From Geosiphon pyriformis uo1 (lineage: Eukaryota; Fungi; Glomeromycota), in contig JAAOMT010000226.1 in the NCBI GenBank assembly GCA_016748015.1, positions 124,001 through 188,000 of the forward strand: DNA of 64,000 nucleotides, written 5' to 3'. Numbering within the stretch: the first letter of the stretch is position 1; every line of letters starts with the position of its first letter. The notes beneath the pieces are model-generated. The model searched no databases and was not told the origin of the DNA. It saw only the letters and a program-made list of their open reading frames with translations. Positions 842 through 51,639 of the stretch are shown here, one piece after another. A program made the position numbers and the translations under genes.

Positions 842-1616
842 TGTTACAAGTAATTATTTGGGGTCTTAAATCAAATAACAAACTCATAACTTGGTGCTCA
901 ATATCTACTCTGATGGCTGATGGTGATAGTATTAGTATGTTGTCTTTATCTGAAGGTTTTGATTGAGAGTCTTTTGTATAATAGACAGAGATTCAATGAT
1001 GAAATAGTTGGTTGGTGAATGGTGTTCCCAATTTTTGTCTTCAGTTTGGTGGCCAGTTTATTTTGGCAGTTGTGCTTTTTTAGTAAGCTATCTGTTAATA
1101 TATATATAATTTTATCCTTATTTCTGGGTCTTTTACCAGACTATCTGTAATGTTAATTACTCAGTGCTTTAATCCTTAACCAGTTAGTATACAACAAGAA
1201 AATCAAGAAAAAGAAAATAAAAAGAAGAAAATAAAGAAATGAGCCAAGACAATATGCAAGTTAGGATCTGTCAATAGCCGTGATCAAGAGCTATTGTTTC
1301 AGTGTGGTTAAGTATCAATTGCTATCAACATGAAATGTTAATAGTGAAGAGTAAGTGGAATGGTAAATAATTATTTATTAATATTTGTGAATAGAAGGTT
1401 GCTTAGATAAAATCTAAACTAAGAAGTCTCTAATGGAAGGATTCTGTTTTTTTACTTTTAACACTACTGCTATATATACATAATTAATGTTCTATGAGAT
1501 TGCTCACATTCCTGAGTGATGTGCTATGATTTCTTGAGCAATGTGCTCATGTACCACATACTATTCACTTATTGGTCTACTATTTCCCTATATCTGTTTT
1601 CTTTTTATGAGTAATA
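842..1616 (-). repeat. 3' LTR of A
   Basis: TGTTACA...GAGTAATA; homologous to 29334-30208; purine tract abuts it on the minus strand. Confidence 0.93.
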
Positions 1617-2326: not shown

Positions 2327-3703
2327 TTATGTGTTTGGTCCAATGATTATGATTGGTTCCAGATCTCGTGAAATCTCATCTGGTTGGACTAGTATTTGTT
2401 GTACTCCTAATTGTAGAATGTTATTGGTAGATGATGATACTATTTGGTGATATGATTTCAGTCAATCACCATGTGCTGCTTTGGCTAAAATTTTGTTGTC
2501 TCATCTTAGTTTATAAGCTCCATTTCCGAGAATTTCTTCTATGTAAAATAGTCTGTCCTATTTGGGGTCAAATTTTCCACTCCATTGTTTTTTTGCTTTG
2601 GTACGATGTAAAAGTACTTTGTCTTCAATCTTGAATTTAACTGGTTTGTCTGGTAGTTGATTATCATGTCTTTTTTTTTGTTTTTCTTGTGACTTTTGGA
2701 TGTTATCAGCTGCTCTTTGCCATTTATTTTCTAATGTTTCCATTAAGTCATATGTTCTTTTTAGCAATGTTTCCTGAAAATTGTCTTCAGTTATTGGTTC
2801 TGTTAGATAAGTGGTGACTTCCATCTCAACTGGTAATGTTGCTGTTCTACCATATACTAATTCAAATGGTGTTGCTTGTATAGTGTCTTGCTTCATTGTC
2901 CAATAAGCAAATAATACTAATAGTATGAACAAATCCTATTTGTTCTGATTTTCTTGACTGATCTTGGCGATTGCTTTACACAATGTTTTGTTAAACCTCT
3001 CAACTAACCCATTTGTTTGTGGATAGTATGATAATGATAATGGTTTTTTGATTCCAAATCTCTGACTTAATTCTGCTAATGTTCTGTTCACAAAGTAAAT
3101 TCCTTGATCTGATAATAGTTCTTTTGGACATCCATGTTGACAAATCAAATCTTGATGAATGAATTTGGCAACAAATTCTGCATCTGCTCTTTAAATGGCT
3201 TTTGCTTTTGGCTATTTAATGAGATAGTCCATGGCTACTGCAATATATCTGTTGCCTCTGCTGGTGATTGTTAATGGTCTGACTAAGTCAATTCCAATGT
3301 AATCAAATGGTTGTCCCACTTTAATTGGTCTTAATGATTCACTTGGTCTTGTTCCACCTCTTTTCTGACAAACATCACAATTCTGAACATATTAGATGAT
3401 GATTGGATACATTGATGGCCAATAATATCTCTTTCTGATTCTTTTTATGGTTACTTCTTTATAAAAATGTCCTGCTGTTGGGTTTGAGTGCATGTTAAAT
3501 AATATTGTCTCTTTCTCTGGTTCTGTGATTACTCTAATTGGTTGATCTGAATTTTTTCTGTTCTTCTAGAAAAGTATATTTTGATGGTTGATCAAATATT
3601 TTGATTGTTGTTTTATGTTTCTTTGTTCTTTTTGAGATAATTTCTCCTTGAACAATTGGATATTTATATAATATTGAAGTTGTTGGTATTTTTGTATATT
3701 CAT
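2327..3703 (-). pseudogene. Integrase of A
   Basis: MNIQKYQQ start, H2C2 region, LLSDQG, PQTNGLVERFN, TPFELVYGR, tail LEPIIII. Confidence 0.9.
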
Positions 3704-3733
3704 CTTTTGTTATATTTTTGGGTTGGAATGTTT

Positions 3734-6700
3734 TTAGATTTGTCTCATTTGTGACAGTCCGTCAGCATTTCCATTGTCTTTTCTTTTTTTATAATGTACT
3801 GTATAATTAAATGATGAAAGTTCTATTTTCTATCTGGCATGACAATTGTTTGCAAATTCTTGTTTCTGAATTGAAGTCAATTCTTTGTGGTTAGTATACA
3901 CATCAAACTTTTGACTCAAGTATTCCTTCCATTTGATAACAGTCCAATAAATAGCTAAGTGTTCTAGTGCTGGAGTTTCATAGTTCTTTTCAGCTGGACT
4001 TAAGCTTCTACTGGCATAAGCTACTGGATGTTCTTTTCCATTGGGTTTTTTTTGTGAGAGTACTGCTCCCAATGCTTGGCTTAATGCATCAGTGGTAATT
4101 ATAAATAGTTTGCTGTGGTCTGGATACATCAATACTGGAGTTTGGATAAGCTTTTTTCTTAATATATCAAAAGCTTTTTGTTGAGTTTTTGTTCATTCAT
4201 ACTTCATATTCTTTGTTTGGAGTTGGTATAATGGTTGAGCTATTTTGGAAAAGTTCTTAATGAAGCAGTGATAGTATCTGGCAAATCCCAAGAATGCTCT
4301 CAATTCTGTAAGATTATTTGGTACTGGAAAGTTCTTAACAATCTCAATCTTGTCTGGATCTGTTTTTATTCTATCTTTGCTCACCACATGTCCCAAAAAC
4401 TTGAGTTCAATTTTTCCAAAGAAACATTTGGTCACATTTAGCTTTAGTCCAGCTCTTCTTAATCTTTCAAACACTTGTTGAAGATGATACAAATAATCAT
4501 CAAATGTTTTTGAGAATACATTGGTGTCATCCAAGTATACAACTACTGATTTCTATAGTAATCCAGTATAGACAATTTCTATGAGCTGTTGGAATATTGC
4601 TGGAGTGTTCATCAAGCCAAATGGCATGACTTTAAATTCAAAATTTCTCTTTTTTGTGATAAATGCTGTTTTCTCTTTGTCGGCTGGATTTATGACTACT
4701 TGCCAGTAACTACTATCTAAATCCAGTGTTGAGAATCATTTATTTCCTCCAAAAGCATCAAATTCTTGAATCTTTGGAGTTGGATAGCTATCACCTTTAG
4801 TCACTCCATTCAGTTTCTGATAATCCACACAGAAACAGATCTTTCTATTTTTCTTCTGGACTAGTACTACTGGTAATGACTATGGGCTCATTAATGGCTG
4901 AATTAGTCTGTTGTTAAGCATTTGGTTAATTTCTTGATGAATGATCTCATGGCTAGCTGGTGGTACTCTGTATGCTCTTTGTTTAATTGACATTGCATTT
5001 CCAGTTTTGATCTGATGCTGGATGATGTTGGTTCAACCAAATTCATTTTTGATCGCAAAAATGTTATTGAAATTGTTGAGTAACATTTTTAGTTGTATTT
5101 GTTGAAGTGGGTCTAGATTCCCCATGTTTATCTGTTCCAATTGTTTTGGTTGGAGCAGATAACATTCACTTCATCTATAGATGGTTTGTGATGTGATGTC
5201 CACATATCCACAAAGTTGTGGAAAATCTGAAACGTGGTTTGGTGGTTGATCCTCAACTTGAGTGACTAAATATTCAATAATAGTTCCTTTTGGTATTTCG
5301 ATGACTTTTTCAGTTGCTTTATAAATGGGAATTTTGATGTTTTTGGGGTTTTTGGCTGATATGTAGAGATTAGTAAGTCCAATCTCTCCTAATTCACAAA
5401 TGGTGGCTTCTGCTTTAAACAATTAAGCTTAATCCTTTACTTTTCTTTTTATGGCTAACATATACTGGTCATATGATGGAATGGAAATTAATTGATGGGT
5501 TGAGATAATTTCTCTTTTGTCAACAATTTTTTTCTCTGCCATATTGACTGATATGTCTATTCTACTCATTGATTCAAATCTCTGTATCCTCTTGCTGTTA
5601 TACCTAATTTTTCTCTTTTTTCCACTGAAACTAACTGAGCTATTTTTACCAGAGGTAAGAATATTGTCTGTGCTATCTTTTCATTTGGCTTTATAATATA
5701 GGTCTTTTCTGAGTCATTTTGTAGCATGGCAATGATATTTCCTATGTATTCTATATCAATTATTCTTCCTTTGATGTTGATTTTTTTTTTCGCTAAACTA
5801 CTTTTAGATGCTAATTGGACTATAGTTATTGCTAGAATTTTCAGAGCTATTTTGAAATCAATACATGTGTGTGAATTTGGTTCCAATTTGATGGCTTCTT
5901 TTCCTGGATATCTCAGATCAAACCCTATATCAGTATTATGTGTGCATTCTGACATGATACCTTCATTATTATTACTATACCATTTAAGTTCCTGCTCCTT
6001 AGAGAGATCAGGAAGTGCAATGTATATTTTGAGATTGAAATCAGAGTTTAAATTATTAATATTTTCATTGCTATATTGCGCAGAGCTAAAACAGGTGTTT
6101 TCATCATTGTCATTGTCAAAGTTTGAATCGGGATTGAAAACTGATTCCGATTCTATTATGCAGCTGCTAATTGGTTCTTCTTCTGAGATCGTGTAGATCA
6201 TGCATAGTGGTGAATTATAAATGAGGTCACACTCATTACAATATTGAAAGTCATAAGGAATTAAGCAATGTTGACATAACTGAGTATTCAACTGCTTCAA
6301 ACGCTGCTTTTGTTCTTCCCTGGTAGATGCTAGCTCTTAATAATGTTCATGGAATTGTTCTGGATCTAGAAAATTTATGACTGGTTCTGGGTTCCAGTCA
6401 AGTTTTATAGGTTCAGATAGGTTATTTTTAATCGTTTTTATTTCTTCTGGAGTCACTTCTTCAATTTTGACAAGTACCATTTGCCAGATTTCATCATCAT
6501 CATGTGGGCATCTGTCCAGACATTTGATGGCTCATCTCCAAACAGCATCTATGGGCATTTTTTTTTACCCAGTTGCTTATAAGAATCGTGTATTGACATG
6601 ATTTGTTACATGTTCCTTCTCAACCAGGAATGTCATTCCATATTTTTTCGTCCAAAAGAGTTTCTCCACAAGCCAAGCAGGGTTTGTTATCCCATTTTTC

Positions 6701-9018: not shown

Positions 9019-10346
9019 TTAAGTGTTCAAGTTTGGTTGTTGTTCTATTATAATTATTGGTTCTAAATTTCGGGGAATATCTTTAGGATTAATTAAAGAA
9101 GAATGTGTATCAATTTGTGGAATTAATAGTTCAGGATTGTTTTTGGAATAATAGTGTTTCAATCTGTCTCCATGTGCAACTTTTGCTAGTATTTTGTCAT
9201 CAAATCTTAACTTGTATGATCCATTGCCTAGAATTTCATGGATATAAAATGGTCCATTCCATTGTTTTTCAGCCTTAGTTCTGTATAAGAGAACTTTATT
9301 TTCAACTTTAAATTCGTTGGTAATGGGTGGTAATTTGTTGTCATGTCTTTCTTTTTGTTGAGCTTGAGAATGTTCAATATGAGTTGCTGCTATTCTTTTT
9401 TTTTCTTCCAGTGTACTAAAAAGAGTGTAGGCCCTTTTTTAGAGTGTTTCTTAAAAGTTCTCTTCATTAATTGGTTGCACAGAGTATGTTTCTACTATAA
9501 AATTAATTGGTAATGTTGCTGTTCTTCCATAAATTAAATCAAATGGTGTGTGTTTTGTAGTATCTTGTTTTAGTGTTCTGTATACTAGTAACACTAATGG
9601 AATAAAGATATCTCATTCCTGCTCAAAATCTGTTGAGACTTTGGCTAGAGATTCATACAATGTTCTGTTGAAATGTTCTACAAGTCCATTTGTTTGAGAG
9701 TGATAAGGTAATGATAGAGGTCTTTTGATATTGAATTATTCACAAATTTTTTGTATCAAGTTGTTCACAAAATGTGTTCCTTGATCAGATAAAAGTTCAA
9801 TTGGGCATTCATGTCTACAAATAATGTCTTCATAAATGAAATTTACTACTGATTTTGCATCTGTTTTTTGGATGGCTCTAGCTTCAGGCTATTTGATTTC
9901 CTTGGATTGTGATAGGTAATAGTCTGACTAAATCAATTCCAACTTTGTCAAAAGGTTGTCCAACTTTGATTGGTTTTAAAGGTTCTGTGGGGCAAGTTCC
10001 TCCTCTTTTTTGACAACTATCACAAGATTCTATATATTGTTGAATGTTTTTTGCATGTGAGGCCAAAAATAATGTTCAAGAGTTCTTTGAATTATTCCAT
10101 CTCTTCCCAAGTATGCTGAAAACGGATTTGTGTACAGTTATATAAAATTGTTTCTTTTTCATTCTCTTGTACTAATCTGAGTGATTGGTTTGGATTTTTG
10201 TGATTTTTATAATAGATTTTGTTATGGTGTATAAAATATTGCTTTGATTGGTGTTGTAAATAATGTTTTTTACTTGGAGACCAATTCTCTGACATGGTAA
10301 GAGTCTCCAAATAGTTTTTAAGATTGCTGTAGTTTCTGGGATCCAT
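9019..10346 (-). pseudogene. Integrase of B
   Basis: MDPRNYSNLKNYL; CDSCQ; LLSDQGTHF; GPFYI; tail NLEPIIIIEQ. Confidence 0.88.
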
Positions 10347-10403
10347 TGTTGTTTGGTTATTTTGTTGGTAGGTTGGTAAGTTATGATGGAATTGTTGTTG
10401 GTG

Positions 10404-12075
10404 TTAGGCTTGTTTCATTCTTAAGAGGCTATCAACATTGGTGTGTAGTTTTCTTGGTTTGTAATATACAATATATCTGTAGTCTGCTAGGAAGTCATTC
10501 CATTAAGACTGTTTGTCACTTTGTTCAGTTTTCTTTTTATTAAGCCATTTGAGGCCAATATTGTCAGTTATTATGTCAAATTCTTTTCCATTCTTCAGGT
10601 ATTGTTAAAAGTGTTTGAGAGCCCAGATGACTGCAGTGGCTTCCAATTCAGTTGAGCCATATTTGAGTTCTGTTGGCTTGAGTGTTCTACTGGCATAAAC
10701 AATAATTTGTTCCTGGCCATTTTCATTCAATTGTGATAAAATGGCACCAAATGCTATGTGTGAAGCATCAATAGCTAATTGAAACCATTTGTTAAAGTCT
10801 GAATAAGCAAGAATTAGGGCTGTTGTCAATTTTGTTTTGAGAGTTTCAAAAGCTTTTTGTTGTTCTTCAGTCCATTTGTATGACACGTTTTTGTTGGTAA
10901 AATAATTGAGTGGTTTGGCAATTTCTGAGAATCCTTTTATGAATTTTCAATAGTAAGAGGCTAATCCTATAAATCCTCTTAGTTCTGTAGTATTTTTGGG
11001 GGTTTAAAAGTTTTTGACAGCACTGATTGTTCCTGGATTTGGTTTGACTCCATCTTTACTAACTATGTGTCCAAGAAAAATCAAGCTTGTTTTTTCAAAG
11101 TGACATTTCTCAATGTTTAACTTTAATTCTGCTTTCCATAATCATTGAAAAACTTCTTGCAGGTGAATAAGGTGGGCTTCAAAGCTTGGTGAGTATATAT
11201 CAATATCATCAAGATAGACAATTATTGATTGCCATAAGAGCCCTTCATATACAACATCTATGAGTCACTGAAATGTTGTTAGTGCATTGCAGAGTTCAAA
11301 AGGCATAACATTAAACTCATAGTTTCCTTCTTGAGTGGTGAATGCTGTTTTGGGTCTATCTTTTGGGTCCATTTCGACTTGCCAGTATCCACTTTCCAGG
11401 TCTAAAGTTGAGAAGAACTTGGCTTTTCCTAGAGCATCTAGCATGTCATCAATTCTTAGAAGAGAGTAGACATCTCCAATTGTAACACTATTCAGTTGTC
11501 TATAATCAACACAAAATCTGATTTTTCCGTTTTTCTTTTTAATTAAAACTACTAGTGAGACCCAAAAACTTCTTGATGGTTGAATCAATCCATTATTGAA
11601 CATTCTTTGGACCTCTTCTCTAATGAATTGGTGGCTGGCAGGTGGCACTTAATAAGCTTGTTGACGTTTTGGTGGAGCATCTTCTGTATGATTTTGATGT
11701 TAAACAATATCCATTTTTCCCAAGTCATTGTTGTCTTTTGCAAATATATCTGCAAATTCAGCTATCAATTGTTTCAATTGTCTTTGTTGTTGAAGTTCTA
11801 AGGAATCCATGTTGATTTGAGAGAGTTTTTCTTCTAAAATGTGGTAGTTTTCAGTAGTGGAAATAATATTTGGATTTGGGAGTAGAGTGTGCTTTACAAT
11901 TTCGATGAAATTAGAGACAATTTGAGAGTTTTTATCTTGAAAGATATTGCTGTGTATAATTCTAATTTCTAATTTGTTTAATAAGACAATAGGGTAATTA
12001 TTGGGGTTGTAGAATATAACTTGAAATTTTTTCATTCTTTTGGGAATATAAACGTTTGGAATTGATATTTCATGC
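10404..12075 (-). pseudogene. B RT-RNase H
   Basis: RFCVDYRQLN, LDLESGYWQV, YLDD, AIDASHIAFGAILSQ. Confidence 0.9.
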
Positions 12076-12974
12076 TGTTATTCATAGAATATAGGAAATA
12101 TATTATTATTAGCAAGTAGATATTAGCCAATCAGAAATAGATGTAGTAAATGTAGAATTCCAGGATTCCTCTTATTAAGAATTGCAGGATTCCAGGAATT
12201 CCAGGATTCTTGTTACAAGGAATTGAAGAATTGAGGAATTTCAAATATGTATATATAACAGTAGTATTAGAAGCAGAAAAAAAGAAAGAATTAACACCAA
12301 GAATCCTTAGCTTAGTTACCACAATCCTCAAATAAATAATTATTCACTATATTAGATTCATTCTTCATTATCAACACTTCATGTTAATAGTAAATAATAC
12401 TTAACCATACTAAAACAGTAGCTCTTGATCACAGCTATTGATGGGATACTAACTTGCAAATTGCCTTGGCTTATTTTTTATTTTTTATTTTATTTTTTCT
12501 TTATTTTCTTTGCTGTCTACTAACTTGATTAAAGAATTTACTCTTGGAGGACTTACGGAGGAATAAAACACACTTAAACAATACTTACTTTTAGAGAACT
12601 TATGGAGGAATAAAACTTACTTAACCAATACTTACTCTTGGAGGACTTATGGAAGAATAAACTTGCTTAAACAATACTTATTCTTGGAAGACTTATGGAG
12701 GAACTGACATCAGAAAACAGCACTGACATACACTTATGGAAGATATTGTATTAGGAGAATCATCAACCATCAAGCTGAGCAAGCAATTGATGAAACTACA
12801 GTTTCAGGAAACTACTAATAAACTGTTATTACTGAATCTCTGTCCATTATACAAAGAACTCAATTAGAAAACCTTTAGATAAAATACCTTCAGATTATCA
12901 TCATTATTAATTGCTTTGAGCACCAAGTTACGAGTTTATTATTTACACAACACCTCAAAGAATCACCTGTAACA
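12076..12974 (+). repeat. 5' LTR of C
   Basis: TGTTATTC...TGTAACA; TATATA ~12250; AATAAA 12331; four ~47-bp units at 12538-12703. Confidence 0.94.
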
Positions 12975-12976
12975 TT

Positions 12977-12993
12977 TGGTGCTCTCTGTGAGG
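12977..12993 (+). promoter_or_regulatory. Primer binding site of C
   Basis: TGGTGCTCTCTGTGAGG, 2 nt after the LTR; equivalents in A, D, E, F. Confidence 0.85.
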
Positions 12994-13035: not shown

Positions 13036-16000
13036 ATGGCAGAATCAGAAATTATAGGAGCCAACCACTTAGGATTTGCAAAATTCTTGTTTCAACAATA
13101 CAGTCAACAATTAGGATTAAACAGTAATCACTACCCAGCCAAATCAGCCTTCAACTATTACATCAATGATAAAATCACAGACTGTTTAGGAGGAACTGTT
13201 AATATTGAGTCAGCAAGAGAAAATTTTTATACAGAATTATTTCAACACACCAGCTTACCAAGAAATTACAGTTTCACCCCAATCATCAGGGAAATTAATC
13301 AAATCATTGAAAGATACATACAACAACAATTTTCCATTACCTACGCAGACAAAGGTAAAGGAAGAATACAAACACCAGCAGTGACACCAAAAAGAATACA
13401 GTTACCTGGTTGGAAGAAACACAGAGTAGAATTACCAACCACTCCATCATATCACTACATACCTGGAAGCACCATCAACATTTTATCAGTAAACATGTCC
13501 ACATTAAACATGACATTAATATTTGGAAGATTTCAGTTTCAAAGCAAACAATGGAAAGAAGACTTACTAAGACCATATGGTGCATATTTTGAAAGATTTA
13601 AATCATGATCCCTAATGCCATCAGGAATTCAATTACCAATACCCTAACCAGATTTCAGAGCTGCTACTCCATGGAAATTATTAGAGAAAGAAGAAAAAGG
13701 AAGTGAAGATCAAAGATTTACTTACCAAAACTCAATCTCAGAAAACTCGGAATTCGGAATCCCAAACATTCAAACTCTGCAAAACTCAAACATAGAAAAT
13801 CTGGAAATTAAAACTCTGAATATTAGAACTTAGCAAAATCAAAACAATCAGAACTCCAATTTAATTAATCAGCCAAACATACTTCCAAATATTGTCATCA
13901 ATCACCCACCAATTGATCCGATAGTCAAACCCATTTAGCAGCCACCTCAACAATCAAATCTGCAAATCCAACAGTCACAAGGACCACTTTAGCAACCACT
14001 ACTGCAACAACAACCACTACAGCAGCCATAACAACAACTAAACATAAACCAAATGGCCTACGCACCTATTGCCAAGTTAGAAAACTTTACTGATGAAGAA
14101 GACGACACTCAAGCATGAATCAATGACATCTCCAAGGCCATTATAGTGAACAATTGGGATGATGCCAGAGTCTTATAGACAATCCCATACTTTCTCAAAG
14201 AAACTGCCAATTCTTGGTATCAGAGTTTAGCTGCCAGATCACAAACATTCCAACAATTCAAAACTGCCTTTCTGGAATATTTTAGCAACAATAACAGTAT
14301 TAATTGTCTAGCCAATACTTTCACCACAATCAAACAGAATAATACTGAAGCAGTCACAACATACCTAGAATGCTTTCATAAAGTCCTATGCCAAATTCAA
14401 GCCATCAATGCTGTGTATTTCACAGAACCCCAAATCCTCAACCAGTTTATTTGTGGCCTGCACAGTAGCATTTTGCAACATGTACGCCCATTACACCCAG
14501 CCAACCTTCAAGCTACAATTACACATGCCAGAGATTTTGAATTAGCTGAGCTAAAAGCCAATCACACTCAAACTGTAAATTTAATAATGAATGGATCATC
14601 TGATTTGGATTCCAAATTGAAGCAAATCAGTGATATCATCAATCAGAAAATAGAGGGATACTTAGCTGACAATAGCATGATTTATCAACCTTCTCAACAG
14701 CATAACAATTAGGGAAACAGGAATTGTTTCCAAAATCAGTTACGTCCATTGTCATCATCCAATCAGCAATGGCAGCCAGAGATGCATGTTTGCCACAACT
14801 GTGGTAAACAAAGCCACATAAAAGCCAACTGCAACACTTATAACTGACAATCGGGAAATCAACATTGAAACCCTAATCACCGATTCCAAACCCTGAATCA
14901 ATATCAAAATCAAGAGCAAAATTAAAACACTTACCTGCCAATGATGCAGCAGCCAATTTATTAAGCACCAATATATCAGACTTCAGTTTATTAACCGCAG
15001 CCACCAGCAATATATCAACTGCAGCCATTCATAATATATCAACCACACCCACAAGTAATCTATCAATCTCAAACCATTCAAACACCACTCCAAAACTTAC
15101 CTCAACATGGAACCCAAAGACTGAGAATAACACAACAAAACTGAAGATTGGCGATGGTTGTCTACCAACTGATCTTCAGTTCTTCTAACTTACCATCAAG
15201 ATTACATTCTCGAAATTCGGGTACTGATACCACCCAAAATCTGAATTCCCAGAACTATTTAAGTCTTCTGGTTACCTCAGAAGACATCACACCCAACAAC
15301 CCGGAACCCAACCCAATCCAAAAACTTACCAGCAATGGTTACTGAAAATGAAACATTAGCAGCCATCTTCCTGTTTGAGTTCGAAAAAACCACCCCAGTC
15401 CTATTATTCAGTGGAACCACCCTTGAAGAAAAACTCATTACAGCAATGTATACTAATGCCAAAGTAGATGGCCACTCCATTAAATTAATCCTAGACAGTG
15501 GTTCAGCAGGCAGTATTATCATGTGACAACTCATGGACCAATTAAGTCACTGAGTTGATCGTGCTGCTAGTGCTCATATAATCACTGCTGATAGAGCAAC
15601 CAAAACTCCAATCAGTAAAATTGACAATTTCCCATTCAAAATCAATGGCATTATAATACCCATAAAAGTCTTGGTAATGAAAGCCACTTAGTATCAAGCA
15701 TTCATTGGCAATGATTGGTTATTCAAAACCAATGCAATGCTTGACTGGACCACCCAGAAACTCCAACTCAGCCAAAATGGCCAACACACACGAGTCCCAG
15801 CAACGTGTGGCCATTTCAAACTCAGCAATATTAGGACAACAACACTGCTTATCAAATTCAAGAAGGAAGAAAACAAACCAATGTGGAAAGTGTATCAAGT
15901 ATTATGGACCAAGGTTGACCACAATGAACTGCCACCAATACTTTCTTGGAATGACAACAACAACGAGAAAAGAAAACAAAGAGCAGAACTTACCTGGGAA

Positions 16001-19000
16001 ACAGATAACCTGACTTGAACCAATAATGACAAACTGACATTGAGCTGGGAATGGAAAAAAAACAAAGAAAGCAATAAAGGGAAGAGAAAAAAGAAGGAAG
16101 AAGAAACAACATTCACTAACACCACTGCTCATAACTCACACATTTATCTATTAGTACCAACTAATTATCATTGATCAAGGCTGATATGTGTTGATTGCAG
16201 CAAGAAATTGTTGTCAATGGGCGCATGCTGTGGCAACAATGAAGAATATTCAATGGCCACCAGATTCTACAGCTGCGCATACATCATAAAACACTTTAAA
16301 AGACCAAACCAGGTGGGAAAATGGGACAATACACTATGTTTAGCTTGTGGAGAGACACTTTTGGACGAAGGAATGTGGAATGACATTCCTGGTCAAAGAA
16401 AAATATGTGATACTTTGTGCCAGTACACAATCCTTATCAGTGATTGGGTTAAGAAAAGGACATCCATAGAAGTCGTCTGGAGAAGAGCAGTATGATGATT
16501 GAAAATTTGTTTACATAACAATGATAAAATCTGGAGAATAGCCTTCACCAAAATTCAAGAAACATTATCCAAAGAAATCAAAGAAGTCAAAAACAACCCA
16601 CCAGAACCCTTAGAACTCAATTGGGACAAAGAACTAGTCATAAATCTCTTGGAACCAAAAGAGTTTCATGAACATTATCAAACTTTAACACCTACAAAAG
16701 AAAAACAAGAGCAATATTTGGCCCAAATAAACACCAGACTATGTGACCACTGTTTGATTCCCTGTAACTTCCAATATTGTAATAAGTGTGACCTCATTTA
16801 CAATCCACCACCACGCATGATCTACACAATCCTAGAGGAAATTGAACCAATCAGCAGCTGTGCATCCAAATCGGAATTACTGTTCAATCTCGATTCAAAC
16901 TCTGACAATGACAATAACAAAAACACCAGTTCCAGCTCTGTTCAAATTGGCAATAGCAATGACAATGATTCCAACTCAGATTCAAACTCCGACCCATAAT
17001 ATGAACAATATATTGCACTGTCAGACTTTTCCAAAGAACAGAAGTTAAAATGGTATAGTGACAATAATGAAGATATTATGCCAGAACACACACATAATAC
17101 TGATGCTAAGTTTGATCTGTGGTATCTAAGAAAAGATGCCATCAAATTAAAACCACATTCACGCACTTACATTGATCTGAAAGTAGCATTAAAAATCTTA
17201 GCAACAACAATGGTTCAACTAGCATTTAGGAATAGTTTAGCAAAAAAAGAGATTAATATAAGAGAAGAAATAATTAACACAGAATATGTAGGAAATATCA
17301 TTGTTATGCTACAAAATGATTCTGAAGAGGCCTATATCATAGAGCCAAAGAAAAAAATAGCACAGACAATATTCCTGCCTCTGGTGAAAATAGGGAGAAA
17401 TTAGAGATAACAGCAAAAAGAATACAGGGATTTGGATCAATGAGTAGAATAGATATACCAGTCAATATGGCAGAAAAAGAAATTGTTGACCAAAGAGAAA
17501 TTATCTCAACGGGTTAAGCAATTTCCATTCCACCATATGGCCAGTACATGGTAGAGATAAAGTGGGAAATAAAAGAACAGAATCAGATTTTTGAAGCAGA
17601 ACCAACCCTTTGTGAATCAGAAGAGATTAGACTCATCAATCTCCATATACCAGCCAAAGATTACAGCCACATCAAAATTTCTATCTATAATAACACAAGA
17701 AATGTCATAGTAATATCAGCTGGAATCATCATTGGATACTTAGACACTAAAATAGAGGATCAACCACCAAGCACCATTTCAGACTTTCCACAGCTTTGTG
17801 AATATGTCAATATCACATCACAAACAATATACAGATGAAGTGAATGTTATTTGCTCCAACCAGAGCAATTGGAACAAATGAACATAGAAAACTTAGACCC
17901 ATTCCAATGTATGTAGCTTAAGATGTTGCTCAACAATTTCAACAACATTTTTGCCAACAAAAACAAGTTTGGCCGAACTGACATTATCCAGCATCAGATC
18001 AAGACTGGAGATGCAATGCCAATTAGCATACAGAGTACCACTAGCTAGCCATGAGATCATTTGTTAAGAGATAAACCGAATGCTTAACAACAGGCTAATT
18101 CAATCATCAATGAGCCCATAGTTATTACCAGTGGTACTCGTCTGGAAGAAGAATAGAAAAATCCAATTTTGTGTGGACTACAGAAAACTCAATAGTATAA
18201 CTCGTGGAGACAGCTATCCAACCCCAAGAATACAAGAATTGTTTGATGCTTTCAGTAGAAACAAATGGTTCTCAACATTAGACTTAGACAGTAGTTACTG
18301 GCAAGTAGCCATAGATTCAGCCAACAAAGAGAAGATGGCATTCACCACTAAAGAAGAGAATTTCAAATTTGAAGTAATGTCATTTGGCTTAACCAATGCT
18401 CCAGCCACTTTCCAATGGCTAATAGAAATTGTTTATACTGGCTTATTGTGGAAATCAATAGTTGTATACTTGGACAACACCAATGTATTCTCAAAAACAT
18501 TTGATGATCATCTTCATCATTTTCAACAAGTGTTCGAAAGGCTAAGAAGAGCAGAACTAAAGTTAAATACAATAAAGTGCTTCTTTGGCAAGACAGAACT
18601 AAAATTTTTGGGACACATAGTCAGCAAAGACGGCATCAAAACAGATTCAGAGAAAATAGAGATAGTAAAGAACTTTCCAGTACCAACCAATGTGACTGAA
18701 TTAAAATTATTCTTGGAATTTGCAAGCTATTATTAATGCTTTATAAAGAACTTTTCAAAGATAACTCAATCACTCAATAATCTGCAAACCAAGAATACAA
18801 AATATAAATGAACAAAAAGTCAACAAGAAGCTTTTGATATTCTGAAAAGAAAGCTCATTTAAGCTTCACTACTAATCTATTCAGATCACAACAAACCATT
18901 CATCATTATCACCAATGCATCAGGCCAAGCATTGGAAGCAGTACTATCTCAGAAGAGACCAGATGGTAGAGAACATCCAGTAGCATATGCCAGCCAAGGT

Positions 19001-19270
19001 CTAACACCAGCTGAAAAGAACTATGGAACACCAGAACTAGAACATTTAGCAATCTATTAGGCAGTTATGAAGTAAAATGAATACTTGAGCCAAAAGTTTG
19101 ATATATACACGAATCATAAAGAGTTAACATCACTTCAAAAGCAAGAATTTGATAATGGCTGCCAATTCAGATGGAAAATGGCCCTGTTACAATATACTTA
19201 TACTATACACTATAAGAAAGGAAAAAACAATGGAAATGCCAATGGTTTGTCGCAAATAAGACAAATCTAA
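13036..19270 (+). pseudogene. C gag-PR-Cys-rich-dUTPase-RT-RNase H polyprotein region
   Basis: CHNCGKQSHIKANC; LILDSGSAG (~15490); CVDC/CLAC/CDHC..C..CNKC; dUTPase ~17090-17445; YLDN (from YLDD); ends NANGLSQIRQI*. Confidence 0.92.
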
Positions 19271-19332
19271 GAATATTTCAACCCAAAAATATAACAAAAC
19301 CAGAACAATACCAACGAAAAATATAACAAAAG

Positions 19333-20715
19333 ATGAACATACAAAAATATCAACAACTTCAACATTATATAAACACTTAACAGTTTAAGAAGAATTTATT
19401 TCAAATGGAACGAAAGAGTATCAAACAACAATTAAAATATTTTATTACTCACCAAAATATACTTTATCGGAAAAATAGAAGAGATCTAGATCAACCAACC
19501 AGAGTAATTACAAAGCCAGAAAAAGAGACAATATTATTCAACATGCACTCAAATCCAACAGCAGAACACTTTCACAAAGAAGCAACCATGGAAAGAACCT
19601 GAAAAAAATACTATTGGCTATCAATGTATCCAGACATCATCCAATATGTTCAAAATTGTGATGCTTGTCAGCAAAGAGGAAGAACAAGACCCAATGAACC
19701 ATTAAGACCAATCAAAGTGGGACAACCATTCGACTGTATTGGAATTGATTTAGTCAGACCATTAACAATTACCAGCAGAGGAAACAGATACATAGTAGTA
19801 GCCATGGACTATCTCACTAAATGGCCAGAGGCAAAAGCAATTCAAAGAGCAGATGCAAAATCTATTGCCAAATTTGTTCATTAAGATTTAATTTGTCAAC
19901 ATGGATGTCCAAAAGAATTATTATCAGACCAAGGAATGCATTTTGTGAACAGAACATTAACAGAATTAAGCCAAAGATTCGGAATTAAGAGACCATTATT
20001 ATTACCATACCATCCACAAACCAACAGATTAGTCGAAAGATTTAACAGAACATTGTGTGAAGCAATAGCTAAGTTCAGCCAAGAAAACCAGAATGATTGA
20101 GATTTGTTGATACTATCAGTACTATTTGCTTATTGGACAATGAAGCAAGATACTACACAAGCAACACCATTTAAATTAGTATATAGTAAAACAGCAACAC
20201 TACCAGTGGAAATAGAAGTCAGCACATACCCAACCAAACCAATAACAGAAGAGAATTTCAAAAACACATTGTTGAAAAGAACATATGACTTAATGGAAAC
20301 ATTAGAAAACAAATGACAGAGAACAGCTGATAACATACAAAGGTCACAAGAGAAACAAAAAGAAAGACATAATAACCAACTACCAGATAAACCAGTTGAA
20401 CTCAAGATTGGAGACAAAGTACTACTACATCATACCAAAGTGGAAAAACAATGGAGTGGAAAATTTAACCCCAAATGGGACAGATCATTTCACATAGAAA
20501 AAATTCTAGGAAATGGAGCTTACAAATTAAGATTAAATAACAAAATCTTGACCAAAGTAGTACATGAAAATCGACTGAAACCATACCACCATAAAGCATC
20601 ATCATCCACCAGTAATATTCCACAACTGAGAGTACAAAGAATACTAGTCCAACCAGATAAGATTCCACAAGATCTGGAACCAATTATCATTATTGATAAC
20701 AACACATCCAATTGA
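19333..20715 (+). pseudogene. Integrase of C (own ATG)
   Basis: MNIQKYQQLQHY; H..H..CDAC; GIDLV, SDQG, VERFN; tail LEPIIIID. Confidence 0.9.
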
Positions 20716-20739: not shown

Positions 20740-21399
20740 ATGGTCGACACAATAGAAAAACACAGAAAAATAGAAATTACTGACAACATTCATTTATTAG
20801 CACAACAAATCTTTCAATTAATCCAACACCAGGAGATAGAAATTACAATTAATCAACAAACCATTTGATACAAAAGTACTACAAAAATACCACAACACAA
20901 AATACAGAGAAAACTCGAAAATGTTGTTGACAAAATCATAACCAAAATAAAATTGGCCATGAAAGAACAACAAATAGTCAGATTACACCAAGAACTTACC
21001 GAAAAAACTTGGACTTGGTGGATGCAACAATTTCCGAAAAACTATTGTTATTTTTACTTGGGACAACACGTAAATATCCAGAATTTGTACACTGACAAAA
21101 CAAAATGGTTATTTGACACAACAATACTGAGACAACTGAAACAATATGTGGGAAAGAACAATCTAACCACACAAGCTCAAGCCATTTACCAGCTATATAT
21201 GGGATTTCAGGACTAACCAGAAATCTTACTCAACACAGCAATAGATACAGTTACGAGTAATCAATTGGGAAAAATGACCAATGCCCAATTTGAAGAACTA
21301 CAAACTCAAATAACACAAGTAATACTCGAAAAAAAAGTTCAAGAAATAATTCAAGAAGAGGAATTAAAAGAGTTAGATTTTGATGGAGCTCAATATTAA
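20740..21399 (+). pseudogene. ORF3 of C (~219 codons, two premature stops)
   Basis: MVDTIEKHRKIEITD...YFYLGQH...AIYQLY...LGKMTNAQFEEL...LDFDGAQY*. Confidence 0.8.
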
Positions 21400-21412
21400 A
21401 AGGAGGGAATAA

Positions 21413-22341
21413 TGTTACTCATAGAATATAGGAAGTATATTATTATTAGCAAATAGATATTAGCCAATCAGAAGTAGATGTAGTAAATGTGGAATTCTAG
21501 GATTCTTCTCAGAGAAATTGCAGGATTCCAGGAATTTCAGGATTCTCCAGTGAAGAATTGCAGGATTCCAGAATTCCAGGATTTCTCTCATCAGGAATTG
21601 CAGGATTCTAAGAATTCCAGGATTCCTGTCACAAGAAATTGAAGAATTGAGAAATCTTAAATATGTATATATAGCAGTAGTATTAGAAGCAGAAAAAAAA
21701 AAAATTGACACCAAGAATCCTTAGCTTAGTTACCACAATTCTCAAATAAATAATTATTCACTATATCAGATTCATTCTTCACTATCAACACTTCATGTTG
21801 ATAGTAATTAATACTTAACCATACTAGAACAATAGCTCTTGATCACAGCTATTGACAGGATACTAACTTGCAAATTGCCTTGGCTTATTTCTTATTTTTT
21901 CTTTTATCTTTTCTTTATTTTCTTTGTTGTCTATTAACTTAATTAAAAGATTTACTTTTGGAGGACTTACAGAGGAATAAAATGTACTTAAACAATACTT
22001 ACTTTTGGAAGACTTATGGAGGAATAAACTTGCTTAAACAATACTTACTCTTGGAGGACTTATGGAGGAACTGACATTAGGAAACAGCATTGGCATACAC
22101 TTACGGAGGATATTGTACTAAGAGAATCATCAACTATCAAGCTGAGCAAGCAATCGACAAAACTATGGTTTCAGGAAACTACTGATAAACTGTTACCACT
22201 GAATCTCTGTCCATTATACAAAGAACTCAATTGGAAAACCTTCAGATAAAATACCTTCAGATTATCATCATCACTAATTGCTTTGAGCACCAAGTTACAG
22301 GTTTGTTATTCACATAACACCCCAAAAAATTATCTGTAATA
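21413..22341 (+). repeat. 3' LTR of C
   Basis: TGTTACTC...TGTAATA; three ~47-bp units; longer GGAATTCC array. Confidence 0.94.
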
Positions 22342-43084: not shown

Positions 43085-44461
43085 TTATGTGTTTGATTCA
43101 ATGATTATGATTGGTTCCAGATCTTGTGAAATCTCATTTGGTTGGACTAGTATTTGCTGTACTCCCAGTTGTGGAATATTATTGGTGGATAATGATATTG
43201 TATGGTAATATTGTTTCAGTTGGTCACTATATACTGCTTTGGCCAAGATTTTGTTGTCCCATTTTAATTTATAAGCTCTATTTCCAATAATTTTTTCTAT
43301 GTAAAATGGTCCATCCCATTTGGGGTCAAATTTTCTACTCCATTGTTTTTCTGTTTTGGTATGATGTAAAAATACTTTGTCTTCAATCTTGAATTCAACT
43401 GGTTTATTTGGTAATTGGTTATTGTGTCTTTCTTTTTGTTTTTCTTGTGACTTTTGGATGTTATTAACTGTTCTTTGTTGCTTGTTTTTTAGAGTTTCCA
43501 TCAAGTCATATGTTCTTCTTAGCAATGTTTCCTGAAAATTGTCTTTAGTTATTGGTTCTGTTAGATAAGTGTTGACTTCTATCTTAACTAGTAATGTTGC
43601 TGTTCTACTATATACTAATTCAAATAGTGTTACTTGTGTAGTATTTTGCTTTATTGTCTGATAAGCAAATAATACTGATGGTATAAACAAGTTCTATTCA
43701 TCCTGGTTTTTTTGACTGATCTTGGCAATTGCTTCACACAATATTCTGTTGAATCTTTCAACTAATCTATTTGTTTGTGGATGATATAGTAATGATAATG
43801 GTCTTTTGATTCCAAATCTTTGACTTAATTTTGCTAGTGTTCTATTTACAAAGTGAGTTCTTTGGTCTGATAATAGTTTTTTTAAACATTCATGTTGACA
43901 TATTAAATCTTGATGAACAAATTTGGCAATGGATTCTGCATCTGCTCTTTGAATGGCTTTTGCTTCTGGCCATTTAGTAAGATAGTTCATGGCTACTGCA
44001 ATATATCTGTTGTCTTTGCTGGTTATTGTTAATGATCTAATTAAATCAATTCCAATATGATCAAATAGTTGTCTCACTTTGATTAGTCTCAATGGTTCAC
44101 TGGATTTTGTTCCACCTCTTCTTTGACAAGCATTACAATTTTTAACATATTGAATAATATCTGAATATATTGATGGCCAATAGTATCTTTTTTTAGTTTT
44201 TTCTATGGTTGCTTCTTTGTGAAAATGTTTTGCTATTGGGTCTGAGTGCATGTTGAATAATATTGTCTCTTTCTCCAGTTCTGTGATTACCCTGGTTGGT
44301 TGATCCAGATTTCTTTTGTTCTTCTGGTAAAGTATATTTTGATGGTTGATAAAATATTTTGCTTGCTGTTTTATGTTGTTCTGTTCTTTTTGAGATAATT
44401 TCTTCTTAAACAATTAGATATTTATATAATGTTGAAGTTGTTGGTATTTTTGTATATTTAT
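43085..44461 (-). pseudogene. Integrase of D
   Basis: ORFs 43694-44413 and 43085-43690; KWDGPFY; LEPIIIIE; start codon mutated to ATA. Confidence 0.9.
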
Positions 44462-44491
44462 GTTTTGTTATATTTTTGGGTTGAAATGTTT

Positions 44492-47400
44492 TTAGATTTG
44501 TCTTATTTGTGACAATCCATCAGCATTTTCATTTTTTTTTTCTTTTTTGTAATGAACTGTATAATTAAATAATGAAAGTTCTATTTTCTATCTGACATGA
44601 CAATCATCTCTGAATTCTTGTTTCTGGATTAAAGTTAATCCTTTGTGATCAGTATACACATCAAATTTTTGACTCAAGTATTTTTTCTATTTGATAACTG
44701 TCCAATAGATTGCTAAGTGTTTTAATGCTAATGTTCCATAGTTCTTTTCTGCTGGACTCAAGCTACAGCTGGTGTATGCTACTGAATGTTCTCTTCCATC
44801 TAGTTCTTTTTGTGATAATACTGCTTCCAATATTTGACCTGATGCATTGATAGTAATGATGAATAGTTTGCTGTGATCTGGATACATCAATACTGGAGCT
44901 TGAATAAGCTTTCTTCTTAGTGTGTTAAATGTCTTTTGTTGAGCTTCTGTCCATTTATATTTCACATTTTTGGTTTGTAGATGATAGAGTGGCTGGGCCA
45001 GTTTAGAAAAGTCCTTGATAAAGTGGCAATAATAGCCTACAAATTCCAAAAATGTTCTTAGTTCTGTCAAGTTGGTTGGTACTGGAAAGTTTTTTACTAT
45101 TGCAATCTTGTCTGGATCTGTCTTGATACTGTCTTTGCTTACAACATGTCCCAAAAACTTAAGTTTGGTTTTTCCAAAAAAGCATTTGTTGGCATTTAGT
45201 TTCAATCCTGCTCATCTGAGTCTTTCAAATACTTGTTGAAGATAATATAGATAATTATCAAATGTTTTTGAGAACACATTGGTGTCATTCAAGTATACAA
45301 CTACTGATTTCCATAGTAGTCTGGTATAAACAATTTCCATAAGCCATTGGAATATAACTGAAGCATTTATCAAGCCAAATGGCATCACTTCAAATTCAAA
45401 GTTTCCTTCTTGAATTGTAAAAGCCATTTTCTCTTTGTCTTCTGATTTCATGGCAACTTGCCAGTAACCACTATCTAAATCTAGAGTTGAGAACCATTTC
45501 TTCCCTCTAAAAACATCAAAAAGTTCTTAGATCTTTGGAGTTGGGTAACTGTTGTCTTTGGTTACTCTATTCAATTTCTGATAATTCACACAAAATTGTA
45601 TTTTCCCATTTTTCTTTTGGATTAGTACTATTGATAATAACCATAGGCTCATTGATGATTGAATTAGCCCATTGTCAAACATCCAATTTATTTCTTGATG
45701 AATAATCTCATGGCTGGCTGGTGGTACTCTGTATGCTCTCTGTTTAATTGGCATTGCATTTCCAGTCTTGATTTGGTATTGGATGATGTCAGTTCTACCA
45801 AATTTGTTTTTGCTGACAAAGATGTCATTGAAGTTGTTAAGTAATATTTTAAGCTGCATCTGTTGAAATGGGTCTAAGTTTCTCAGATTCATTTGTTCCA
45901 ATTGTTCTAGTTGGAACAGATAACATTCTTCTCGTTCATATATTGTTTGTGATGTAATATCCACATATTCACAAAGTTGTGGAAAATCTGGAATGATGTT
46001 TGAAAGCTGGTCTTCAATTTTTGTGGTTAAGTATTTAATAGTGGTTCTTTCTGGTATCTTAATGATATCTCCTGTGTTGTTGTAAATAAAGATTTTGATG
46101 TGGCTGTGTTTTTTGGCTAATATGTATAGATTGACTAATTCAATCTTTTCTGATTCACAAAGTGTTGCTTCTGCCTCAAAAATCTGAACTTGATCCTTGA
46201 TTTTTCTCTCTATAATTACCATGTACTATTCATATAGTGAAATAGAAATTGGTTGACAGGTGGAGATAATTTCTCCCTTGTCAACAATTTTTTTCTCTGC
46301 CATATTAACTGGTACATCTATTCTACTTGTGGATCCGAATTCTTGTATCTCTTTTGCTGTTATCCCTAATTTTTTTCTGTTTCCCACTAATACAAATTAA
46401 GCTACTTTAACCAAAGGTAAGAATATTGTCTGTGCTATCTTTTTGTTTGGATCTATGATATAGGTCTTTTCTAAGTCATTTTGTAGCATAGCAATAATAT
46501 TTCCTACATATCCTATATCAATTATCCCTTCTTTAATGTTGATTTCTTTTTTTGCTAAGCTACTCCTAGATACTAGTTGAACTATTATTGTTGCTGGAAT
46601 TTTCAGTGCTATTTTGAGATCAATGTAGGTGCACAAATGGAGTTCCAATTTTATGGCATTCTTCTTTGGATATTACAGATTAAACCCTATATCAGTATTA
46701 TACACACATTCTAACATGATACCTTTGCCATTATTGCTGAACTATTTAAGTTCTTGCTCCTTGATAAGATCAGAAAGTGTGATAAATGTTTTGGGATTTA
46801 AATCAGAGTTTGAATCTGAGTCTAAATTGTTGTTGTTGTTATTATTATATGGAACAAAACTGAAACTATTGTTTTTGTTATCATTGTTATCGAAGTTTGA
46901 ATTGGGATTAAAATTTAATTCCGATTCTGATACACAGCTGCTAATTGGTTCTTCCTCCTCTGGAATTGTGTAGATCATACAGATTGATAGATTGTAAATG
47001 AGGTCACACTCATTACAATATTGAAAGTTATAGGGAATTAGGCAGTGTTGACACAGTCTAGTATTCAACTGTTTTAAGCATTGTTCTTGCTCTTCTCTAG
47101 TGGGTGCTAAGTTTTGATAATGTTCATAAAATTTTTCTGAACCTGTTTTAATATTTAAAAATGCTTCTGGATTGGGAATTAAAACAATGTCAACTGGTTC
47201 TGGTGGGTTGTTTTTAATCTCTAAAATTTTGCTAAGTGTGACTCTTTTGATTTTGGCATTGGTCATATGCCAAATCTTGTCTTTGTCATGTGGATACTTG
47301 TCCAAGCAATTGATTGCTTGGTGCCAGGCTGCAGTAATAGACATTCCATAACTCACCCAGTTATTGATAAGGATTGTGTATTGGTACAAAGCATTACATG

Positions 47401-50200: not shown

Positions 50201-51577
50201 TTACGTGTTGTTGTTAATGATGATGATTGGTTTCAGATCTCATGGAATCTCCTCTGGTTAGACTAGTATCTTCTGTACTCCTAATTGTGGAATATTACTG
50301 GTGGATGGTAGTGTGATGTTGTGGTATAATTTTAGTCGATCTTTATGTGCTGCTTTGGTTAAAATTTTGTTATCCAGTTTTAATTTGTAAGCTTCATTTC
50401 CTAGAATTTCTTCTATGTAAAATGGTTCATCCCATTTGGAGTCGAATTTTCTACTCCATTGTTTTTCCGCTTTGGTATGATGTAAAAGTACTTTGTCTCC
50501 AATCTTGAATTCAACTGGTTTGTTTAATAGTTGATTATTATGTCTTTCTTTCTGTTTCTCTTGTGACTTTTGTATGTTATCAGCTGCTTTTCTTTGTTTG
50601 TTTTCCAATGTTTCTATTAAGTCATATGTTCTTTTCAACAAGGTTTCCTAGAAATTCTCTTCTGTTATTAGTTTAGTTGGATATGTGTTAACCTTTATTT
50701 CCACTGGTAATGTTGCTGTTCTATCGTATACCAATTTAAATGGTGTTGCTTGTGTAGTGTCTTGCTTTATTGTCCAATAAGCAAATAATACTAATGGTAT
50801 CAACAAATCCCAATTATTTTGGTTTTCTTGGCTGAGCTTAGCTATTGCTTCACACAATGTTCTATTGAATCTTTTGACTAATCCATTGGTTTGTGAATGG
50901 TATGGTGATGATAATGGTCTCTTAATTCCGAATTTTTGGCTCAATTCTGTTAATGTTCTGTTCACAAAATGTGTTCCTTGGTCTGATAATAATTCTTTTG
51001 GACATCTATGTCAACAAATCAATTCCTGATGAATGAATTCAGCAATGGATTCTGCATCCACTCTTTGAATTGCTTTCACCTCTGGCCATTTAATGAGATA
51101 GTTTATGACTACTGCTATGTATTTGTTTCCTTTGCTGGTGATTGTTAATGGTCTGACTAAATCAATTCCAATCTGGTCAAATGGTTGTCCCACTTTGATT
51201 GGTCTTAATGGTTCACTGGGTCTTGTTTCTCCTCTTTGCTAACAAGCATTACAATTTTGAACATATTAGATGATGTCTGGATACATTGATAACCAATAGT
51301 ATTTTTTTTTGGTTCTTTCCATGGTTGCTTCTTTGTAAAAATGTCCTGCTGTTGGATTTGAGTGCATGTTGAATAATATTGTCTCTTTTTCTGGCTCTGT
51401 AATTACTCTGGTTGGTTGATTTAGATCTCTTCTATTTTTCTGATAAAGTATATTTTGGTGAGTGATAAAATATTTTGATTGTTGTTTGATACTCTTTTGT
51501 TCTATTTGAGATAAATTCTTCTTGAACTGTTGAGTGTTTATATAATGTTGGAGTTGTTGATATTTTTGTATGTTCAT
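50201..51577 (-). pseudogene. Integrase of E (own ATG)
   Basis: MNIQKYQQLQHY start; DDE core pieces; KWDEPFY. Confidence 0.9.
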
Positions 51578-51639
51578 TTTTTGTTATATTTTTTGTTGGT
51601 ATTGTTCTGGTTTTGTTATATTTTTGGGTTGAAATGTTC

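Follow-up and report, generated by a model that had tools for sequence, protein, structure and literature searches.

The window analysed here, a stretch of 64,000 nucleotides from a Geosiphon pyriformis contig, carries five decayed, nested LTR retrotransposons of Ty3/gypsy type (copies A to E) from a lineage in which integrase (IN) is encoded apart from pol, as an open reading frame (ORF) with a start codon of its own. We are nearly certain that the split itself is real and not a product of decay and, on the sequences compared, it is a trait of the whole lineage. It apparently represents a variant of the Ty3/gypsy kind that is undescribed in the literature searched. In the textbook view, integrase enters the particles of LTR retrotransposons and retroviruses within the Pol polyprotein; an IN encoded apart from this polyprotein would need an unusual route into the replication particle. 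The features of the junctions suggest that IN may be made by termination and restart of translation (reinitiation), to which we assign a probability of about one half.

Window copies and their junctions

The window has a GC content of about 30%. Its LTR elements are nested, with C in B, B in A, and E in D, and the LTR pairs of the five copies, with TG...CA ends, are 88-94% identical. C and E are about 90% identical to each other, while B is divergent (about 66% identical in DNA). Decay of the copies is almost entirely by transitions, which account for 164 of the 175 differences between C and E. Copy C lies on the forward strand and begins with a 5' LTR (12076-12974; TG...CA; 91% identical to the 3' LTR over 848 aligned nt), just 3' of which is a PBS-like TGGTGCTC at about 12977-12984. 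There follow a stop-broken Gag capsid region (14053-14712; Pfam Retrotrans_gag E 1.8e-13, Ty3_capsid E 1.6e-8), a broken region with protease (PR), a Cys-rich insert and dUTPase (15404-17404; Pfam dUTPase E 1.4e-10, with the aspartyl protease at E 1.4e-5, under the cut-off), and reverse transcriptase (RT) plus RNase H (RH) at 17861-19270 (Pfam RVT_1 and RT_RNaseH). A spacer of 62 nt (19271-19332), which is A/C-rich, AUG-free and unstructured, separates RNase H from the stand-alone IN ORF (19333-20715), whose 460 codons include five internal stops and no frameshift. The element closes with ORF3 (20740-21400), weakly similar to the helical ORF3 family of the clade, and a polypurine tract with the 3' LTR (21398-22341). 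The Cys-rich insert between protease and dUTPase (about 16170-16810, forward strand) matches no Pfam family and has counterparts in A, D and E.

Exact 4-bp target duplications flank C (ATGC, 12072-12075/22342-22345) and E (GCAT, 48616-48619/58765-58768); those of B and D are off by one mismatch. The duplications are alike (ATGC, GCAT and ATAT/ATGT in C, E and the flanks of B and D), which suggests a target-sequence preference. The elements thus have the LTRs with TG...CA ends, PBS, polypurine tract and target duplication of canonical Ty3/gypsy elements, and Pfam recovers the domain order Gag-PR-RT-RH-IN, with dUTPase between PR and RT in C. They depart from the canonical form in that IN is not encoded within pol for release by the protease: all five window copies and 10/10 in-clade loci from metagenomes are split. 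Because IN lies outside the pol reading frame, we file the elements as a gypsy-derived variant and not as canonical members.

At the junction of C, RNase H ends in ...GLSQIRQI followed by TAA (19268-19270), and the ATG at 19333, 62 nt further on, opens MNIQKYQQ in a different frame; the spacer holds additional TAAs at 19292-19294 (RH frame) and 19324-19326 (IN frame). The other four junctions are on the minus strand. In A (3701-3736) the stop at 3734-3736 and the ATG at 3701-3703 stand 30 nt apart, and the spacer between them holds a second in-frame TAA; in D (44459-44494) the stop at 44492-44494 and 30 nt precede a start mutated to ATA; in E (51575-51642) the stop at 51640-51642, 62 nt and an ATG are found; and in B (10344-10406) the stop at 10404-10406 precedes 57 nt without any G, open and in frame, and then an ATG. 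The positions and spacer lengths that the initial annotation had given are correct, and its description of RNase H ending in RQI-TAA in A, C, D and E, with a new start (ATA in D) beyond a spacer, is confirmed. Pfam places RT and RNase H upstream of the stop and H2C2, rve and a Tf2-like SH3 domain downstream of it.

In all five copies, the TAA stands at one and the same distance from the motif that closes RNase H. Among 951 gap-free codon columns covering RT-RH and IN in A, C, D and E, no other has a stop in 4/4 copies; two further columns carry stops in three of the four, and CAA to TAA decay elsewhere in these copies affects 16 of 175 cells. Sequencing data support the fixation of the TAA: across 2,101 contigs from one DNA run, which may be the window's own sample, no variant of at least 3% falls at either TAA of the C junction among the 40 strongest of 45 variants, the five weakest including one T>C of unplaced position. 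At the ATG of this junction, G>A makes up 19% of depth, similar to other G>A sites. Read depth, measured on the copy C reference only, suggests that the short spacer is the commoner form, and the extra 32 nt of the C and E spacers resemble, as read from the alignment, a decayed duplication of the spacer end. The change of frame reported for the C and E spacers is upheld and, because the two copies are about 90% identical, can be refined to a single event. The spacer had also been described as G-poor and A/C-rich; its G-poorness holds for all five window spacers, but only 3/11 metagenome spacers are G-poor at p<0.05, and G-poorness as a clade-wide signal was rejected.

Integrase and the split in relatives

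The IN of C has an N-terminal extension, followed by H2C2, a DDE core and SH3. Its best 120 homologues, 40-48% identical and 392-453 aa long, contain IN domains only. The close homologues with names are from Rhizophagus and Cetraspora, so a Glomeromycotina-like fungus is the likely host, and the intact relatives probably come from mycorrhizal fungi. The Met of the MNIQKY column is the start of 100 of these 120 proteins, all 100 having D, E or N as residue 2; a further 17 start further down, and three are slightly longer with Met in that column. H72, H79, C109, C112, D139, D199 and E235 are invariant across 93 selected IN rows. An AlphaFold model of an intact relative's IN (pLDDT 89.6) matches PFV and Ty3 integrases over about 390-430 columns (Ty3 7q5b, E 2e-24). 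Given this fold match and the invariant DDE and H2C2 residues, the ORF encodes the whole enzyme and not a fragment. A C-terminal chromodomain is absent from P0001 and from the Pfam lists of the 120 homologues, and a chromovirus was ruled out on this ground. No relatives were found in viral contigs. As the search with the IN of C is blind to fused proteins, longer proteins were searched separately. Four of the best 120 fell in the score range of the clade, all of them fungal gene models, and the other 116 scored at most 239 bits. These four joined models lack the IN N-terminal helix, and three of them also lack the RNase H end or all of RT; hence, they look like predictions that skip the junction.

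Eighty metagenome loci were examined, and the counts of split and fused loci use those with RNase H in view. The split is present in 10/10 such in-clade loci (L001, L005, L008-L010, L013, L016, L018, L022 and L026), which are intact. Their spacers measure -8, 30, 62, 63, 74, 89, 110, 163, 365 and 727 nt, with two junctions in frame, three at +1 and five at +2. The layout of Gag-Pol without IN, then IN, then ORF3, first proposed from the window, is thus also that of intact relatives, and the contrary case of an open, in-frame RH-IN junction in intact copies was encountered in none of the ten. In five further loci, a homologue of the long Pol tail ends upstream of the IN start. Outside the clade, 26 of the 33 loci with RNase H visible are fused and seven were flagged as not fused. 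Six of the latter (L036, L049, L053, L057, L069 and L080) have no Met at the aligned start and resemble decayed copies, and L032, on a long branch outside the clade, is split and has an ATG of its own. The clade counts leave out L032, L024, L046 and L064. In L024 (492), L046 (213) and L064 (1764), which have no RNase H in view, an out-of-frame ORF overlaps the IN start.

In a FastTree analysis of RT-RH (141 rows), the window copies fall in a 36-row group (support 99) in which 34 rows are without IN. Of 20 IN-less proteins in this group, 16 end 1-6 residues past the RNase H motif, three have tails of 166-356 aa and one is cut short. The initial annotation had allowed that the stop of B might be a mutated CAA; these 16 protein ends, together with the shared offset of the stop in B and in A, C, D and E, largely remove that doubt. 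The two IN-bearing exceptions are P0125, a gene model, and P0271, a true fusion whose IN is fronted by a Met-led helix. In the IN tree, a 68-row group (support 98) includes only four long rows, the joined fungal gene models. An IQ-TREE analysis of 52 of the 141 RT rows places three fused rows inside an unresolved cluster with split rows, these RT trees holding gypsy-like relatives without a named gypsy reference set. A tree constrained to unite the 24 split rows could not be rejected (p-AU 0.52), so a single origin of the split is plausible from these trees. An ancestral fused Pol may have been split near the old protease cut site, as a Met fronts the PFV/Ty3-like IN fold and the Met of fused P0271 is similarly placed. 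P0271 and P0131 are fused Pols whose linker has a Met-led helix like the N-terminus of the stand-alone IN, and they are candidates for the ancestral state.

ORF3 belongs to a conserved family of about 145 aa, all-helical and 3' of IN (e.g., L001:2284-2715). A profile built from eight ORF3s gathered 437 cluster representatives. Among the 80 loci, the profile of the family gave clear hits in 11, every one of them from the split clade, and in no fused locus. The window ORF3s link weakly to this family (C, E 0.25; the best window hits are B, E 0.0065, and D, E 0.076). IN-ORF3 junctions resemble RH-IN junctions, at -4 to 129 nt with one ATGA overlap. There was no consistent Pfam family among 119 members, no solved homologue, no viral match and no convincing Atlas neighbour. 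The structural model (pLDDT 95.6, all-helical) matched no fold clearly (best E of 0.31 and 0.11 with Foldseek, best Z of 5.1 with VIA), which does not prove a new fold. ORF3 could have a role in IN translation or delivery. More ORFs without a Pfam match lie 3' of ORF3 in L005 (6804-7436) and L001 (3226-3781), and L012 has, near the end of its IN ORF (1326-1376, minus strand), a Hammerhead type III-like match that stays under the gathering score (29.6 bits, E 0.022).

A 41-nt RNA motif with an outer and an inner stem ends 3-15 nt 5' of the IN ATG in seven loci. On eight pairs, 56 of 56 cells pair, 14 with two-sided changes (0/500 shuffles; slid controls at most 54%), a score that is inflated because the structure came from the same sequences. 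Across 81 sources, the motif model recovered an eighth locus, L030 (E 1.5e-9), and a weak variant in L004 (E 0.076), and it found nothing in the window. The sites are L002:585-625, L005:4463-4503, L006:185-225, L011:490-530, L015:175-215, L019:8-48, L025:492-532 and L030:19-59, with the variant at L004:24-62. The carriers fall in one 13-row IN sub-branch (support 93), together with two R. irregularis proteins. In 23 loci searched up to E 5, no Rfam model matched the motif, nor did any at the junctions or in the window, and the motif pattern had no matches in viral or prokaryotic genome contigs. The motif may act as an entry site, ribosome tether, ribozyme or nuclease block. The same sub-lineage has an RNase H C-terminal tail of 166-356 aa with a conserved His/Cys cluster and no Pfam family, carried by L005, P0270, P0279 and P0302 and by the upstream ORFs of L002, L006, L011, L015 and L025. 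The 727-nt RH-IN spacer of L018 (6706-7432) contains repeated hairpin-like words, part of the 3' half of the motif and a TATA-like run, a candidate internal promoter.

A single in-frame TGA followed by CTA stands between protease and RT in L008 (870-875), L018 (3358-3363) and L022 (1585-1590), which are otherwise intact; L022 also has a single TGA at 481-483. TGA-CTA is a leaky stop context, and these three are likely readthrough sites.

Routes to a free integrase

Reinitiation, internal entry and a subgenomic RNA had been listed in the initial annotation as candidate routes. If IN is made by restart, ribosomes on the full-length RNA would terminate at the RNase H stop, scan a short, AUG-free, unstructured spacer and restart at the IN AUG, and ORF3 would be read by the same route. 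Nine metagenome spacers of at most 190 nt hold a single ATG where shuffles predict 10.6 (Poisson p 3e-4), and the seven short spacers with RNase H in view hold one where 5.7 are predicted (p 0.02). The five window spacers have no ATG and an MFE near 0, and ATGs lie close upstream of the stop in 17/17 junctions listed. As these are the properties that scanning from the stop requires, restart is favoured for the short spacers. Stop and start overlap at the RH-IN junction of L022 and at the IN-ORF3 junction of L006 (ATGA), and A is at -3 in 18 of 27 starts. There are precedents: mammalian LINE-1 restarts after a spacer of 63 nt, stop-restart is used by the victoriviruses and hypoviruses of fungi (PMC5972666), and yeast is described as inducible to reinitiate on bicistrons (PMC11952965). 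Several points count against restart. Without special elements, reinitiation that follows a long ORF is described as rare (PMC5972666). The spacers of L008 (365 nt, 7 ATGs) and L018 (727 nt, 12 ATGs) are full of ATGs and so could not be crossed by scanning from the stop; an AUG-free spacer is also expected of a transcript starting near the stop; and in one sub-lineage the stable stem-loop directly before the AUG points to another route. TURBS motif 1 is UGGGA. TGGGA was absent from the 100 nt before the stop in all 15 junctions, as was notable upstream structure, and a TURBS motif or upstream structure was rejected as the basis of restart. The lineage may use more than one expression route. 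A free IN would reach the particle or cDNA untethered to Gag-Pol, perhaps with the help of ORF3 or because its translation takes place on an RNA that is undergoing packaging.

IN, and ORF3, could instead be made from a separate subgenomic mRNA, through an internal promoter or a leader spliced to the spacer, which we consider possible but less likely than restart. The L018 spacer combines many ATGs with its TATA-like run about 250 nt before the start, and that of L008 has its seven ATGs; spacer length and frame are free, and AUG depletion would suit any 5' leader. AG directly precedes the ATG in A and C, but this is not conserved and the G-less spacer of B offers no AG acceptor. Spacers of -8 and 30 nt, moreover, leave no promoter room outside the RNase H coding sequence, and the ATGs found near upstream of the stop in all 17 listed junctions do not favour this route. 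Internal entry, with ribosomes recruited by the A/C-rich spacer or, in one sub-lineage, by a structured RNA element that might instead cleave or protect the RNA to yield an IN template, strikes us as unlikely. A-rich leaders aid cap-independent starts in yeast. The covarying motif lies 3-15 nt before the IN ATG in seven loci, and its model found L030, outside its training set, in the same place; however, it is absent from the window and the other loci searched, has no Rfam match, and owes part of its pairing score to the circularity noted above.

It is also conceivable that a fused Pol-IN is still made by readthrough, frameshifting or a stop-removing intron. B and L009 have spacers that are open and in frame, the TGA-CTA stops of three relatives may reflect recoding elsewhere in the lineage, and four fungal gene models join the upstream ORF to IN. 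Against this, only two of the ten intact junctions keep the frame, and in 12/15 junctions the spacer itself contains a stop that closes the IN frame, the other three being B and L009, closed by the RNase H stop only, and one overlap. No good donor-plus-acceptor pair for in-frame fusion was found in any of the 15 junctions, and splice-fusion was rejected; the joined gene models look like predictions that skip the junction; and a fused product would not need a conserved Met. A fused Pol-IN is thus very improbable and, as far as sequence can decide, largely refuted. Hardly credible is the remaining reading, in which the stop arose by CAA to TAA mutation in dead copies and the Met is incidental. 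Transition decay is indeed heavy (164/175 C-E differences), and two other columns have stops in 3/4 copies, but every copy has the RNase H stop, which the contigs of the family show as fixed, 100/120 homologues start at the same Met, and the ten intact split loci refute this explanation.

Comparison with known elements

Yeast Ty3 and the dUTPase-bearing PosPlaTy3-5, the latter as described in the part of PMC2864245 consulted, share with the window elements LTRs, PBS, PPT, a Ty3-type capsid, the order PR-(dUTPase)-RT-RH-IN and the IN fold. They differ in that their IN is in the pol frame, whereas here it lies outside pol with its own start and is accompanied by a conserved ORF3 that matches no known family. 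Fungal LTR elements, in the sections of PMC3248453 and PMC2864245 that were available, have one or two ORFs with IN as part of pol. Other systems resemble the elements in expression, as far as the consulted sections of PMC5972666 describe them. LINE-1 ORF1/ORF2 shares two long ORFs, a spacer of about 60 nt and a proposed restart, but it is a non-LTR element whose downstream ORF is the whole enzyme, with no particle packaging needed. The stop-restart of victoriviruses and hypoviruses and the TURBS of caliciviruses share a downstream ORF on one RNA and use in fungi, and a stop/start overlap of their type is seen in L022; by contrast, window spacers are 30-62 nt, and TGGGA or structure is missing from 15/15 junctions. 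Caulimoviruses, in which TAV is found, are likewise reverse-transcribing elements with several closely spaced long ORFs, and TAV accepts spacers as short as a few nt and as long as 700 nt (PMC5972666, same sections), compared with -8 to 727 nt here. ORF3 could act as such a transactivator, although it has no sequence or fold match to TAV. To our knowledge, caulimoviruses have no integrase. Ginger/GIN DNA transposons encode a gypsy-type integrase as a stand-alone ORF, whereas here IN follows gag, PR, RT and RH within an element bounded by LTRs; a transposon of this type was ruled out by the presence of RT, RH and LTRs.

No description of the layout or the motif was found in the accessible parts of the literature searched, a search that Repbase, subscription journals and supplements, including Additional file 1 of PMC2864245 (a list of element structures), fell outside. 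The split layout is not mentioned in the consulted parts of 10.1101/2021.03.30.436303, PMC5911963, PMC6431247 and PMC13465315.

A diverse lineage that keeps IN as a separate gene shows that elements can do without the polyprotein coupling. How IN finds cDNA and how fungal ribosomes translate downstream ORFs could be studied in this natural system, with testable parts in the spacer, the RNA motif and ORF3. A broader proposal, which we consider rather doubtful, is that an old fungal LTR lineage has become polycistronic and virus-like (Gag-Pol, IN, ORF3), with a new class of structured RNA before the IN AUG in one branch and ORF3 jointly driving the translation and delivery of free IN; if true, this would be the first life cycle of an LTR retroelement without polyprotein delivery of integrase. 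There is also a practical consequence, as gene callers split or mis-splice these elements. Rhizophagus IN-only entries are named DDE integrases or transposases, other models are joined, and such mis-called elements would distort transposon counts in mycorrhizal genomes.
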